A stretch of 64,000 bases of DNA from Scleropages formosus (Eukaryota): positions 31,992,960-32,056,959 of the forward strand of contig NC_041813.1 in the NCBI RefSeq assembly GCF_900964775.1. Reading direction: 5' to 3'. Made by a program: the position numbers and the translations under genes. Below the pieces are notes generated by a model, which searched no databases, was not told the DNA's origin, and saw only the letters and a program-made list of their open reading frames with translations. This document shows positions 12,780 to 35,172 of this stretch, one piece after another (the first letter of the stretch is position 1; each line of letters starts with the position of its first letter).

Positions 12780-12834
12780 ATGACTCCGTGGAGGACTTTA
12801 TTGGATGTGATGGTGGCAGTTACCATGGCAACAG
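12780..12834 (+). CDS. Serine protease copy 1, exon 1 (signal peptide MTPWRTLLDVMVAVTMATG)
   Basis: ATG at 12780, a hydrophobic signal peptide, donor CAG|gtaggc. It is homologous to the exon-1 sequences at 20429, 26405 and 32255. Confidence 0.55.
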
Positions 12835-13285
12835 GTAGGCTTTACCAAGTCAGCGATGCCTGAATATAAAGAGTACGGAGTCGAAGAGCGAAGTCACTTT
12901 GACGAGCGAACGCAGTGCGGCTTTAAGTGACCACGAGGGTCACACGATCATGACCGTGGCACACAGCACCAGTGAGCGCGTCCGCATTGCAGTCCACCTG
13001 TAAACTCGAGTGGACTTTTCCACTTTCCACTTTGAAACGAGTTAAAAGGAAAAATCATGTACAAACTTTGACTTGTTGTTGTTGGCAAATCAAATGTACT
13101 GAGCCTGATCACGTCCAACAACATCGATCGTGTCCTCCGCATTCCGTTTTCTCCCTCGCGAACATTTTTGAGGCGAGACACGGCAGAAAAAACGCGGAAA
13201 CTAACTTAGTATTACAGTAAAACCGCAGCCGGAGGAACCGGATTTCGTTCGCTCACGGAGACGCGCTCGAAGCGCTCGGCAGTGC

Positions 13286-13340
13286 GGGACACGGACACAC
13301 ACACACACACACACACACACACACACACACACACACACAC
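13286..13340. repeat. (CA)n microsatellite. A (TA)n-rich tract lies downstream at 13466-13502.
   Basis: Simple repeats between exons 1 and 2 of protease copy 1. Confidence 0.9.
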
Positions 13341-13561
13341 TGCGCACAGTCAGTGCTGTACACGAATCATTGCTTCGGAGTATGAAAATGAGGTGCGTTC
13401 CCATGGCCACACACAGTCACAGTGTGTACACACACGGACACGGATACACACCCAGACAAACACTATATATATTATATATATACACATATATATATATATA
13501 TATGATGCCCCCTGCAGACACACGCGGTCCTGATCTCTATTTCTTCTCTCCCACTTTCCAG

Positions 13562-13588
13562 AATCACACTCCCAGCTCCATGGCAAGT
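13562..13588 (+). CDS. Serine protease copy 1, exon 2 (propeptide micro-exon). The boundary and phase are uncertain.
   Basis: Acceptor ttccag|AATCACAC. This exon is 25-27 nt, against 21 nt in the other three copies. Only the donor caagt|gtccgt keeps the reading frame. See findings. Confidence 0.35.
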
Positions 13589-13794
13589 GTCCGTGTTGGT
13601 TACTCACTATTACTCCCTGTTCCGCTTCCTTCGGACAGGAACAGTTCATCATGGGCTCTCACCAAAAAGGAAAAAGCTGCACTGAGTATCATCTACAAAC
13701 ACAGTATTCTGCTACTACTAATGTACACATGTCATGTGTTTGTACAGCAATTTCTTTACAAGATTTTGAAACCACTGGAAAATCAAACCCTTAT

Positions 13795-14240
13795 CTCTTC
13801 ATCCCATCCATCCATCCATCCATCCAATTGAAATAAGTGCCTGTCCCGAGCAGGGTCGTGGCGAACCGGAATCCAACCTGGAGGTGTATGGTGCAAGAAT
13901 GGAGGGGGGGTACATCCTGGATGGGATCCCAGGTCATTGCAGATCTTTCCATTCCCCTCACAAAAAAGAATAAATTGTAACATGGACCAAAATGTACAAA
14001 CGATAAGCTGTTATGTTTGGTCATAGATATATGTATTTTGTCACGTCACAGCTCCCTGGCACTGGGTTCGAATCCCCCCTCAGTCTGTGTGGAGTTTGCA
14101 TGTACTCCTCATGTTCTTCATGTGCTTCAGGTAGATTGGTGACTCTAAACTGTTATGTGTGTGTGTGTGTGACTGCCCAGTGATGGACCACTGTGTCCCA
14201 CCTGGGGTTTGTCCAGCCTCACACGCTATACTTCCAAGAC
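13795..14240. repeat. Two adjacent fragments of SINE family B: the 3' part with a (GGAT)n tail in minus orientation at 13795-13960, and a central part in plus orientation at 14040-14240
   Basis: Sequences CATCCATCCATCC...CAGGGTCGTGGCGAACCGGAATCC...GGGTACATCCTGGATGG and ...GGTTCGAATCCCCCCTCAGTCTGTGTGGAGTTTGCATGTACTCC...GGTAGATTGGTGACTCTAAACTG.... Confidence 0.45.
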
Positions 14241-14443
14241 AGACTGTGGACTACAGTGACCCTGCCTAGTGCAGACAGTTACCAATAATAAATTAACATG
14301 TATGTGTTATAAAATTACATTAATTTAAATAATTAAGACACACACACACTAGCAGTTGCACAATTGTGCTTTTTGAACCCAGAAAATAAGGTGTCAGTAT
14401 GCCAGTTCGCTTGCCCACCTGCTCACATGTCGTCTCCCTTCAG

Positions 14444-14612
14444 CATGTGGCCGAGCCCCCTTGAACACCAAGATCGTTGGAGGGCAGAATGCTGCCCCGG
14501 GCAGTTGGCCCTGGCAAGTCAGTATGCGCTACCAGGGAAGTCACGTGTGCGGAGGGTCCCTCATCAACAACCGGTGGGTCCTGTCCGCTGCCCACTGCTT
14601 CGCACTCATCAG
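14444..14612 (+). CDS. Serine protease copy 1, exon 3 (activation site and His57: CGRAPLNTK|[43 protein letters not shown])
   Basis: Carries the trypsin-family IVGG N-terminus and the AAHC catalytic histidine motif. Acceptor cccttcag, donor ATCAG|gtatga. Confidence 0.8.
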
Positions 14613-14743
14613 GTATGAATTACAGGATGCGACAATGAAGAGGTGGAGCAGTGTTACGTGTGTCACGTACCATGTTTTGCGGTATGATGTGTTTCACCCC
14701 TGATATCATCTTAAACTGCACTCTGTCACGTCTTCTGCTGTAG

Positions 14744-32309: not shown

Positions 32310-33078
32310 GTAGGATTTATTCCACATAGCATATGGCAGACACGATGATGGAGATAAAGAAATAAAGATTGCGGGGCAAGAGCCAGGACTGACGAGCCAG
32401 GCCAGTCTGTGTTCATACACACTCTGTAATTATTGGAACAATGAAAGTCAGCACGAAACTGTGACTAAATGACCAAAGTTGAAGAGAGAAAAGTTTGTCA
32501 CCGGATGTTCTTTCCTTCTGTGTCGTACGACTCGTGTCAAACGGCGTCATTTATTAAATGATCAGAAATTAACGTGACGTGGGATATGTGGGCTTGAACG
32601 CGCAAAAACGTCCTCCAGGAGACCGAAGGGACCAAGTGCGAGAGGGAAAACGACGACACGGCGAGTACAGAGTAAGGGCACGTTCGTACAGTACCCATAA
32701 AATAAGAATGTTTCACCCTGGGCTGTTTCTTACACCATTCAAAGTGAGGAAAAGTTTGCAGTCTAACAACCTGAGGAATGTGTGACTTGAGGGAAAAATG
32801 AGTGTTTGGGCAATAATAGATCCCTACAGCACAGGCTCTGCAGTTTTCAAGGACTGAAATGGTGCTGCAGAAAGTGCCGCGTGTCGTCGTAACACACATT
32901 TTGGGAAAAGTTGACAAACGTGCCAAACACATTCCATGTTTCCCGTCCTCAGAGTCGACTCGCCTCCCCCTTATACACTTTCATAACTTTACTGTCCTGC
33001 CGGAGACCGAACTTCGTTTCCGGAACGTTTCCTACTCAAGATCTCACTGACTTGTTCTTCTCTTCTTCTGCCTTCCAG

Positions 33079-33099
33079 AATCACACGCCCAGAAGCCAA
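33079..33099 (+). CDS. Serine protease copy 4, exon 2 (21-nt micro-exon)
   Basis: Identical to copy 2 exon 2. Confidence 0.55.
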
Positions 33100-33532
33100 G
33101 TAAGTGCTCAATGCCGCTGTTACTCTTGTGTCGCGTGTTTGTCACACAGCAGTGCGGCCACAGGTTCGTGTTCAGTGTCAGTGCCAGAGTGGTCAGTCCA
33201 ACAGCAGCTGGCCATCATCACTGAAATAGAAGGAAACACTCCAGTTCGGGTTAAGGGCTCAAAACTGGACAGAAAATATAATCAGAATGTAAGTAGAGAA
33301 GTAAGAGTTTGATCCGGTGTCAAGGTCGAGATCTTCCCAGATCCCGGATCTTCATGCCTGCTGCTCGGAGCGGCGCAGTTCATGTCGCTGGGCCCTCTTG
33401 GGCTATGAGCTCCGAATGGGTGTGAAGCAGTTATGCAGCACTAGCTTTCTTATATCGCACATAATATCATGCCAAGTAAAAGAAGCTGTGACGTGTCAAG
33501 AACATCCGTGTTCACATGTCGTCCCCCTTCAG

Positions 33533-33701
33533 TGTGTGGTCAAGCCCCCCTGAACACCAGGATCGTTGGGGGGCAGAATGCTGCCCCGGGCAGTTGGCCC
33601 TGGCAAGTCAGTATGCGCTACCAGGGAAGTCACGTGTGCGGAGGGTCCCTCATCAACAACCGGTGGATCCTGTCCGCTGCCCACTGCTTCACACTGATCA
33701 G
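33533..33701 (+). CDS. Serine protease copy 4, exon 3 (CGQAPLNTR|IVGG...[21 protein letters not shown])
   Basis: IVGG N-terminus and AAHC motif. It differs from copy 2 by one residue (SHM to SHV). Confidence 0.8.
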
Positions 33702-33830
33702 GTATTAATTACAGGATGTGACAATGAAGAGGTGGAGCAGTGTTACGTGTGTCATGTACCATGTTTTGCGGTATGATGTTTCACCCCTGATATCGTCTTA
33801 AACTGCACTCTCTCACATTCTCTCCTGCAG

Positions 33831-34099
33831 TGCGAATCCAAGCGGTTGGACTATGGTTCTGGGCCTGCAGACCCAGCAGGGTACCAACCCACATGCAGTG
33901 TACAGAGCAGTGAGAAGAATCATTGTTCATCCAAGGTACAATGGAAACACCAACAACAACGACCTCGCTCTAGTCCAGCTGTCCTCCACTATCAATTTCA
34001 GTGACTACATCCAGCCCATCTGCCTGGCAGCCGCTGGCAGCACCTTATACAACGGCACCGAGACCTGGGTCACCGGCTGGGGATACATCCAGTCAGGAG
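33831..34099 (+). CDS. Serine protease copy 4, exon 4 (...NPHAVYRAVRRIIVHPRYNGNTNNNDLALVQLSSTINFSDYIQPICLAAAGSTLYNGTETWVTGWGYIQSGG)
   Basis: Asp102 motif. Contains a mosaic patch relative to copy 2 (see findings). Confidence 0.8.
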
Positions 34100-34648
34100 G
34101 TGAGTGTGTTCGTCCTGAGGACCAGCAGGTGGAGGCGTAAATAGGGAACAGAAGCTACAAGTGAATTTTTTGCAGGTTAACATCCCTGGTCAGCTGGGAA
34201 ACTGAGTGAGATGAGCTGAATAACCTGAACTTAGACACTTAAAGAGGTACAAACCTGGCAACAAATTCCCAGAATTAAGCTTAACTGTAAGGGGACCCGC
34301 GTCATTAGAGAAGGCCTTCTCCAGCATTCCCGCTGGTGCTGCTGCCACTCTAGCATTCCGTCCCTCAAGGTGCTTTTCTCCAGTTCTTTTCCTTTCCGTT
34401 CTTCACAAACACACATACAAAAAACAGTGGATGAAGAGAAGTCCATACTGCCGCTGAAGGGCGGTACTGAGACGCTGCTGCCCACGATGCAGTGCTCTCT
34501 GTCCTCCTGGCACCTCAAACTGCATATCAGAACAAATTTGTCATTTACGAAATCAGAACTAAATCACGACTGCAGGCTGCTGTTTTGCAGTTAGTCCACC
34601 TGATTACAGCCTTGGGAGCTGCAACCAGTTGCTGTCCTCTTCCCTCAG

Positions 34649-34794
34649 TGTCCCTCCCTCCACCGGGGATTCTGCAGGAAGTCGAGGTGCCTGTCATTGG
34701 AAACGGGAAGTGTAACTGTCTCTATGGACCGGGGTCCATCACCAAGAACATGCTGTGTGCTGGGCTGCTGGCGGGGGGCAAGGACTCCTGTCAG
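34649..34794 (+). CDS. Serine protease copy 4, exon 5 ([49 protein letters not shown])
   Basis: The upstream intron is about 290 nt longer than in copy 2 because of an insertion at roughly 34170-34480. Confidence 0.8.
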
Positions 34795-34914
34795 GTACCG
34801 CAGCTCCCACAGCCTCCTGAGTCAACGTCTGTCTCAGAGAGCTCTCCACATATCCACAGCGAGTCCAGTGTGACCGTTCCCACTCACGCCAGAAATGTGT
34901 TTCCACCTGTGCAG

Positions 34915-35172
34915 GGGGACTCAGGAGGTCCACTGGTGGTCAAACAGGGTTCCGTCTGGGTCCAGGCCGGGATCGTGAGCTTTGGTAACGGATGTGCTGA
35001 ACCCAAATACCCAGGAGTCTACACCAGGGTGTCCCAGTATCAGTCCTGGATCAGCTCAGTAATCACCTCCAACCTGCCAGGATTTGTCACGTACTTCTCC
35101 AGTGGGAGAAACCGTGACGTCACCTGCTCTGCAACAATCGCAGTCACCAGTAACAGTATATTGCTTACATAA
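34915..35172 (+). CDS. Serine protease copy 4, exon 6 (GDSGGP...[23 protein letters not shown]). There is no long hydrophobic tail.
   Basis: Stop at 35170-35172. Compared with copy 3, about 300 nt covering the tail and the first downstream block is missing. Confidence 0.8.

Follow-up and report, generated by a model that had tools for sequence, protein, structure and literature searches.

Four prostasin-like serine protease genes beside HIRIP3 in the Asian arowana, a tandem array that is probably old and probably reshaped by gene conversion

Are the four serine protease genes that lie in tandem between TAOK2 and HIRIP3 in the Asian arowana, Scleropages formosus, a recent addition to a conserved gene block, or are they the arowana version of something older? 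We take up this question with a stretch of 64,000 nucleotides of contig NC_041813.1 (the window; all arowana positions below are window coordinates), in which the four genes are called c1, c2, c3 and c4. The reading that we consider likely is that c1-c4 are the arowana copy of an old prostasin-like S1A tandem array in the HIRIP3-TAOK2 interval of early-branching teleosts. The gene models, the intact catalytic residues, a mosaic pattern of identity among the copies and a position shared with three other teleosts are directly observed, and we infer the order of evolutionary events in the array.

A six-frame motif scan found IVGG at 14473, 21736, 27971 and 33562 and GDSGGP at 16671, 22801, 29266 and 34915, all on the plus strand, where AAHC is likewise present in four of four units. 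The gene models were built by aligning the four units and reading their splice sites, with a scan for open reading frames and donors locating the signal-peptide exon of c3:

12780-16982, plus strand: c1, six-exon prostasin-like S1A protease, 323 residues, hydrophobic C-terminal tail; exons 12780-12834, 13562-13582, 14444-14612, 14744-15012, 16405-16550, 16671-16982
20429-23031, plus strand: c2, six-exon protease, 296 residues, no hydrophobic tail; exons 20429-20483, 21253-21273, 21707-21875, 22005-22273, 22535-22680, 22801-23031
26405-29577, plus strand: c3, six-exon protease, 323 residues, hydrophobic C-terminal tail; exons 26405-26459, 27562-27582, 27942-28110, 28242-28510, 29000-29145, 29266-29577
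32255-35172, plus strand: c4, six-exon protease, 305 residues, short non-hydrophobic tail; exons 32255-32309, 33079-33099, 33533-33701, 33831-34099, 34649-34794, 34915-35172

The first five exons have identical sizes in all four genes (55, 21, 169, 269 and 146 nucleotides) and the last exon measures 231-312 nucleotides. The 21-nucleotide micro-exon (13562-13582, 21253-21273, 27562-27582 and 33079-33099; those of c2, c3 and c4 are also present in independent NCBI models) codes for ES(H/Q)(S/A)Q.. and sits between the signal peptide and the CG(Q/R)APLNT(K/R)↓IVGG activation site. Introns 2 and 4 of c1 begin with GCAAGT and GCGAGT, in contrast to the GT of the paralogues; these GC donors are T-to-C changes at position +2 within a donor consensus that is otherwise strong, and the reading frame of c1 is intact across its six exons. 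The original prediction, made from the sequence alone, had described four six-exon S1A genes with a signal peptide, a 21-nucleotide micro-exon, IVGG, His57, Asp102 and GDSGGP, and all of these are found, within the same outer limits of 12780 and 35172.

The encoded proteins have the hallmarks of S1A proteases. The Pfam Trypsin domain (PF00089) is matched by residues 36-266 of c3 with E = 3.6e-73, and c1-c4 all retain His57 (AAHC), Asp102 (NDLAL), Asp189 (GKDSCQ), Ser195 (GDSGGP) and the (K/R)↓IVGG activation site. All four also carry a propeptide cysteine and Cys122, in the contexts (A/M/V)CG(R/Q)APLNT(K/R)↓IVGG and YIQP(I/V)CLAA, respectively, and the 35 residues that precede IVGG comprise signal peptide and propeptide, with no stem-domain exons. 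Each enzyme would be synthesised as a zymogen for secretion, with a signal peptide of 18 residues, and would be activated by a cut after the Lys or Arg of LNT(K/R)↓IVGG, a residue whose nature implies that activation needs a trypsin-like enzyme or proceeds by autoactivation. The cysteine of the short propeptide could remain disulfide-linked to Cys122, in which case the light chain would stay attached, and Asp189 in the S1 pocket predicts a trypsin-like specificity for Arg and Lys.

The four proteins differ at their C-termini. The last ~20 residues are hydrophobic in c1 and c3 (mean Kyte-Doolittle values of 1.63 and 1.85) and not in c2 and c4 (-0.23 and 0.55). A DNA alignment of the four tails locates what is left of a c3-like tail in c2:

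23032-23115 (approximate), plus strand: c2 tail remnant, c3-like, downstream of a premature TGA

In c4 the tail is replaced by unrelated sequence, and the tail appears to have been lost by different events, a premature stop in c2 and tail replacement in c4. The array probably codes for two surface-anchored and two soluble enzymes: c1 and c3 would act at the cell surface through a tail of the kind by which prostasin is anchored to glycosylphosphatidylinositol (GPI), and c2 and c4 would be released as soluble enzymes.

The closest proteins outside Scleropages are fish entries named prostasin-like, serine protease 27-like or 33-like, TMPRSS9-like and Zgc:100868. Among relatives of solved structure, compared by sequence, enteropeptidase (E = 2.6e-67) and prostasin (2.6e-64) are in the top three, and hepsin and tryptase score alike. 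In a neighbour-joining tree that includes two human 16p members, prostasin, tryptase and frog sequences group together with 67% support, and the fish family branches as their sister, not nested with prostasin. The prostasin sequence used was checked against PDB entries and that of beta-tryptase was likewise verified. The names of the relatives, the propeptide cysteine, Cys122 and the match to solved prostasin bear out the earlier assignment to the prostasin/PRSS27/tryptase kind.

The position of the array was compared among fishes by taking HIRIP3 or protease loci in public assemblies with 10-kb flanks and searching them with the proteins of the window. In the mormyrid Brienomyrus (Osteoglossomorpha; L001) an active, tailed protease gene at 17064-20182 on the plus strand is followed ~9 kb downstream by HIRIP3, on the minus strand from 29159, a convergent layout like that of the arowana window. 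In the bonefish Albula (Elopomorpha; L002) HIRIP3 is followed by two convergent family members, at 18064-19949 and from 24782, the second of which looks active from its sequence. In the cyprinid Danionella (Otophysi; L006) the order is SEZ6L2, KCTD13, HIRIP3 and then a convergent Trypsin-domain gene at 18103-19656 on the minus strand. With neighbours of this kind in all three, the position is common to all three major branches of teleosts and is not an arowana novelty, and the original description of the cluster as lineage-specific and inserted is not supported at the level of the arowana.

The comparison across teleosts and gar that had been proposed comes out divided, since beyond these three positive species no protease was found within 10 kb of HIRIP3 in gar, reedfish (L003), paddlefish or Channa striata (Percomorpha; L009). 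The gene on the 3' side of HIRIP3 carries a NUFIP2 domain in gar and reedfish; in paddlefish the neighbours are CDIPT-like and ZP genes, and in Channa they are ANTKMT and then XPO6. The protease locus of Amia (L005) has no neighbours within 10 kb and is uninformative on synteny. A search for a NUFIP2-like gene found none in the arowana window and no more than a weak trace in Brienomyrus; we take human NUFIP2 to adjoin TAOK1, which would fit an old paralogous arrangement. On gar CM082495.1 (L007 and L008; 2.08-2.24 Mb), HIRIP3 (ending at 2,110,650) and TAOK2 (3' end near 2,229,381) lie on the same strand, preceded by KCTD13 and followed by a CDIPT-like gene; this order and orientation are those of the arowana window, and the inspection covered all but ~98 kb between HIRIP3 and TAOK2. 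The locus tags of Anguilla set TAOK2 (G00286400) four tags away from HIRIP3 (G00286440). At most, the loci seen would place the origin of the juxtaposition of protease and HIRIP3 around the base of the teleosts, an origin that is not proven because those ~98 kb of the gar interval are out of view.

The second line of evidence for an old array comes from the copies themselves. Across whole coding sequences, synonymous divergence (dS) among c1-c4 is just 0.10-0.21, the ratio of non-synonymous to synonymous divergence (dN/dS) is 0.47-0.61, and the neighbour-joining tree sets c1-c4 apart from all other species as a clade with 100% bootstrap. Between c1, c2 and c3, no alignment is obtained, even with sensitive settings, for the 1-kb 5' flanks, the first two introns, the greater part of intron 4 or the 3' flanks; intron 3 is 91-95% and intron 5 96-98% identical. 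The similarity of c1-c3 is limited to two blocks with sharp edges:

14416-15083, plus strand: homogenised block A (exon 3, intron 3, exon 4), 90-93% identical, by self-BLAST and per-intron comparison; counterparts at 21683-22338, 27913-28581 and 33509-34164
16363-16968, plus strand: homogenised block B (exon 5, intron 5, exon 6), 89-94% identical overall and 96-99% in intron 5; counterparts at 22519-23114, 28960-29563 and 34633-35128

Moreover, dS reaches 0.26-0.87 in codons 1-35, as against 0.00-0.25 in whole exons 3-6, and the closest copy shifts along the gene: in exon 5, c1 goes with c3 and c2 with c4, and over codons 119-171 c4 is nearest to c1. Flanks and long introns that cannot be aligned, combined with exon blocks that are alike, point to an old paralogy among c1, c2 and c3 and to homogenisation by gene conversion, which would have kept the exon 3-4 and exon 5-6 blocks 90-98% alike. 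Since gene conversion would itself produce a c1-c4 clade, that monophyly cannot be read as recent duplication. The dN/dS values show relaxed constraint and do not demonstrate positive selection. The description of the family as expanding and fast-evolving needs to be narrowed in the light of these values and of the unalignable flanks and long introns of c1-c3, with c4 alone appearing recent.

Intron 5 (16551-16670, 22681-22800, 29146-29265 and 34795-34914) has a further property, in that it is exactly 120 nucleotides long, in frame and free of stop codons in four of four copies, and its 96-99% identity among copies is at least as high as that of the flanking exons. Were it retained, the protein would gain 40 residues, placed after Gln192 and before Gly193. 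A run of 40 codons has a ~15% chance of containing no stop, so that the openness of the intron may mean nothing.

The history of c4 can be read from its similarity to c2 and to the flank of c3:

20088-23018, plus strand: c2 unit, duplicated into c4 at 31913-35132; introns 1-3 are 99.2-99.9% identical, with a 289-nucleotide indel in intron 4
30054-30857, plus strand: c3 3' flank, repeated as the c4 3' flank at 35597-36400; 98.4-98.9% identical
33883-33939, plus strand: foreign patch in c4 exon 4, codons 100-118 (HAVYRAVRRIIVHPRY); 18 of 57 nucleotides differ from c1, c2 and c3

In exons 1-3, c2 and c4 differ at a single site, and in exon 4 they differ by 34 substitutions. By this comparison c4 appears to be a c2-like body with a c3-type 3' flank, very recent and the sole demonstrably young copy: a c2 copy would have been joined to the c3-type flank and would later have gained the foreign tract in exon 4. 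The patch itself (57 nucleotides, 19 codons) has a dS of 0.65-0.84, an exception to the low values of whole exons 3-6, and a dN of 0.31-0.35, and it probably reached c4 by conversion from a paralogue that lies outside the window. Positive selection on it was considered and rejected, synonymous divergence being as high as non-synonymous.

Repeats accompany the c2 and c4 units, among them short interspersed elements (SINEs):

19693-20191, no strand assigned: minisatellite upstream of c2, periods 8, 22 and 36, TACCTCAG-like unit
31281-31650, no strand assigned: second copy of the minisatellite, upstream of c4, TACCTCAG-like unit
31719-31914, plus strand: tRNA-derived SINE directly upstream of the c4 unit, not in the c2 unit
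35371-35640, plus strand: second SINE copy, after the c4 stop codon and before the c3-type flank
11352-11547 (minus strand), 38322-38529 (minus strand), 39430-39640 and 63937-64000: other SINE copies

The six SINE copies of the window are 75-95% identical to one another and have the head GGTGGCGCAGTGGGTTGG...GGTTCGAGTCCCGC. The copy upstream of c4 is missing at c2 even though the DNA around it is ~99.7% identical, which makes that insertion very recent. Long stop-free frames reading YQYLSTSV... in both minisatellites were examined as gene candidates and are not genes.

How do these genes stand in public databases? They are already in RefSeq and UniProt; c1, c2 and c3 are absent there as separate, correctly spliced genes. 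The c4 protein agrees in full with RefSeq XP_029109753.1 ("serine protease 27-like [Scleropages formosus]"), and the 1070-residue XP_018619964.2 ("transmembrane protease serine 9-like") fuses c1, c2 and c3 in one frame. The c2 and c3 portions of this fusion are identical to our models, micro-exons included; in its c1 portion exon 2 is lengthened, a further exon is added and exon 4 is lengthened, with both GC donors bypassed. The arowana models labelled Zgc:100868 in UniProt are Ensembl-derived and mis-spliced, and the entries most similar to c3 are Scleropages formosus sequences made of the exons of this window, fused or mis-spliced. An older public model from another assembly version (P0246) likewise contains c1, c2 and c3. 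A literature search found nothing on this protease family or locus.

Several points weigh against an old and conserved array. The comparison species were viewed over 10 kb on either side of HIRIP3, and the orthology of the HIRIP3 neighbours is suggested by position and family membership, without a resolved tree; the backbone of the neighbour-joining tree is weak, with many nodes below 50%. Two of the neighbours do not look like intact enzymes. The first Albula gene (Albula goreensis, 18064-19949, minus strand) is unannotated, lies 2 kb from HIRIP3, has its IVGG exon in three frames and has Ser195 changed to Cys (GDCGSP), and it is probably a pseudogene or affected by assembly errors. The neighbour in Danionella cerebrum shares ~43% identity with c3 in its longest tblastn match (40-47% across three) and is catalytically dead, with H57Q, D102N and S195Y (TQAQVF, ENNVAL and GDYGSP); it is a stand-alone pseudoprotease that retains IVGG and the hydrophobic tail. 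Heavy repeat turnover instead of age could in principle have made the introns of c1-c3 unalignable. An exact public model exists for c4 only, among the four, and c1, which requires two GC donors and is modelled otherwise by NCBI with long in-frame insertions, may be decaying. Expression of c1-c4 is, like their secretion, activation, anchoring and enzyme activity, predicted from sequence.

The last of these points lead to the alternative that the array is partly non-functional or unreal, with c1 in decay, or c4 an uncollapsed haplotype of c2 and so an assembly artefact, or both. Besides its GC donors, c1 has an Asp within the hydrophobic core of its signal peptide, which is predicted to be weakened by it, and the near-identity of c2 and c4 through introns 1-3 is what two haplotypes would give. 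However, both donors are otherwise strong and the six exons of c1 keep their frame; c4 is separated from c2 by the 34 exon-4 substitutions, the 289-nucleotide indel, a SINE, another tail and another 3' flank, far beyond allelic difference; and c1, c2 and c3 recur in P0246 from another assembly version. We regard this alternative as unlikely.

That the proteases were inserted into a conserved TAOK2-HIRIP3 junction and expanded there recently, in the arowana lineage only, is very unlikely. Such an event would suit the fully supported c1-c4 clade and its low dS, the clearly very young c4, the single gene of Brienomyrus against four in a comparable span in the arowana, and the four species with no protease close to HIRIP3. 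As an insertion it is largely refuted by proteases in the same position and orientation beside HIRIP3 in Brienomyrus, Albula and Danionella; monophyly is expected from conversion, the converted blocks have sharp edges within otherwise unalignable paralogues, and codons 1-35 preserve a far higher dS. Least probable by our estimate is that c1-c3 form one multi-domain gene of the polyserase type, as the fused NCBI model has it and as the many fish relatives with two protease-like domains in one protein might suggest, since each unit has its own ATG, signal peptide, propeptide micro-exon and stop codon, the hydrophobic tails of c1 and c3 would become internal, the fusion demands splicing from within the tail codons of c1 into the 5' leader of c2, in real two-domain relatives a Thr/Pro-rich linker leads to a dead second domain, for which the window has no exons, and c4, of the same build, is modelled alone by NCBI.

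The array of old, conversion-linked paralogues that we favour is flanked by the following genes:

1-6776, minus strand: TAOK2, extending past the window start; first coding ATG at 6776, 5' end towards the protease array
41898-45487, minus strand: HIRIP3, stop codon at 41898-41900, 3' end towards the protease array, N-terminal exon near 45487

For the C-terminal region of TAOK2 the named matches of lowest E-value are TAO2, with TAO1 and TAOK3 lower-scoring and further down, and kinase exons are found in the gene; HIRIP3 is backed by HIRIP3 homologues and a CHZ domain. Beyond HIRIP3 follow, on the minus strand, KCTD13 (BTB_2) and then SEZ6L2 (CUB and Sushi), which gives the order TAOK2, proteases, HIRIP3, KCTD13, SEZ6L2 and supports these four genes as the neighbours named at the outset. 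The fifth neighbour then named, ASPHD1, could not be verified: just its start falls inside the window, and Pfam gave no match there. The distance from the TAOK2 ATG to the HIRIP3 stop is 35.1 kb, slightly more than the 34 kb or so first given. Long open reading frames tested in the spacers at 7-12.7 kb, 17-26 kb and 35-42 kb had no Pfam match, and a scan of the whole window with Rfam returned no family. In both arowana and gar, TAOK2 and HIRIP3 are on the same strand and the 5' end of TAOK2 points to HIRIP3. We take the two human genes to have their 3' ends facing and KCTD13 to lie beyond TAOK2, in which case the block of ray-finned fishes is ordered differently from the human block.

Two observations concern the neighbourhood of HIRIP3 in other fishes. 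Several HIRIP3 matches from cod, Polymixia and killifish carry the erroneous name "adenine nucleotide translocase lysine N-methyltransferase"; annotation has probably merged the two adjacent genes there. In Brienomyrus, two long open reading frames (342 and 353 residues) at 3053-5635 on the plus strand of L001 lie upstream of the protease gene; no Pfam family is recorded for them, and they are possibly transposon-derived.

What follows from an old array at this position? The locus is an annotated, ordinary member of a large and well-known protease family with a textbook pattern of gene conversion. It has little significance beyond annotation, where the practical gain is a set of corrected models, with c1, c2 and c3 as three separate six-exon genes. 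As an example, it shows block-wise gene conversion masking the age of paralogues, together with loss of an anchor by two routes. The conserved teleost position adjoins genes that correspond to those of the human 16p11.2 copy-number-variant region, and fish models of the 16p11.2 interval have the proteases sitting inside it in early-branching teleosts and Danionella. A broader reading, which we put forward tentatively and consider rather doubtful, is that the teleost HIRIP3-TAOK2 array represents the ancestral home of the vertebrate prostasin/testisin/PRSS27/tryptase family before the split between mammalian 16p11.2 and 16p13.3, with repeated and independent changes from anchored to soluble (c2, c4) and from active to dead (the Danionella neighbour and the first Albula gene). 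ANTKMT, the 3' neighbour of HIRIP3 in Channa, is presumably a 16p13.3 gene in human, which we take as a hint in this direction. If the broader reading were true, the fish conversions would parallel the rise of soluble mast-cell tryptases from anchored ancestors.

Among known systems, human prostasin (PRSS8) is close in build; this epithelial S1A protease is anchored by GPI and is encoded in 16p11.2 by a gene with six coding exons. Like c1-c4 it has a signal peptide, a propeptide cysteine, Cys122, the CNCLY motif, Asp189 and an intact triad, and like c1 and c3 it has a hydrophobic C-terminal tail, whereas c2 and c4 are without an anchor. The predicted pairing of a propeptide cysteine with Cys122, together with the tail, points to the prostasin and testisin type. 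PRSS8 differs in being a single gene, as against the tandem array of four in the arowana. The absence of an N-terminal anchor and of stem domains excludes c1-c4 from the type II transmembrane proteases (enteropeptidase, hepsin and TMPRSS9), and we reject the "TMPRSS9-like" identity, a name that derives from the fused model XP_018619964.2.

The mammalian 16p13.3 cluster of tryptases, PRSS27, PRSS21, PRSS22 and PRSS33 resembles the arowana locus in being a tandem array of trypsin-like genes with anchored and soluble members, and its membrane-bound and soluble tryptase regions have been described in a paper that cites Trivedi et al. (PMC5742104). Fish relatives of c1-c4 go by the names "serine protease 27-like", "33-like", "testisin-like" and "mast cell tryptase-like". 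The two systems differ in location, the arowana array adjoining genes of the 16p11.2 type, and beta-tryptase lacks the propeptide cysteine and Cys122 that are present in c1-c4, which by this measure do not belong with the mast-cell tryptases TPSAB1 and TPSB2, soluble enzymes that are stored as tetramers.

Nearest of all are the teleost proteins of the zgc:100868 type, which are 59-73% identical to c3 in the active domain. The single-domain, tailed proteins of Brienomyrus (P0108) and Megalops (P0092 and P0090) have the same build as c1 and c3. Most fish relatives depart from this build: their active domain is followed by a Thr/Pro-rich linker, then by a second, dead domain (SAAQCF, NIAVL, and GDAGDP or GDEGGP) and a hydrophobic tail. 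Two-domain models of this kind, which also go by the name "polyserase-2-like", include P0024-P0026, P0030, P0032, P0033, P0052, P0070 and P0119. No exons for a second protease domain are present in the window, where tblastn with six such second domains matched just the four active domains. The dead domains, bowfin's among them, group in one clade with 100% support, which indicates that the two-domain architecture predates the split between holosteans and teleosts.

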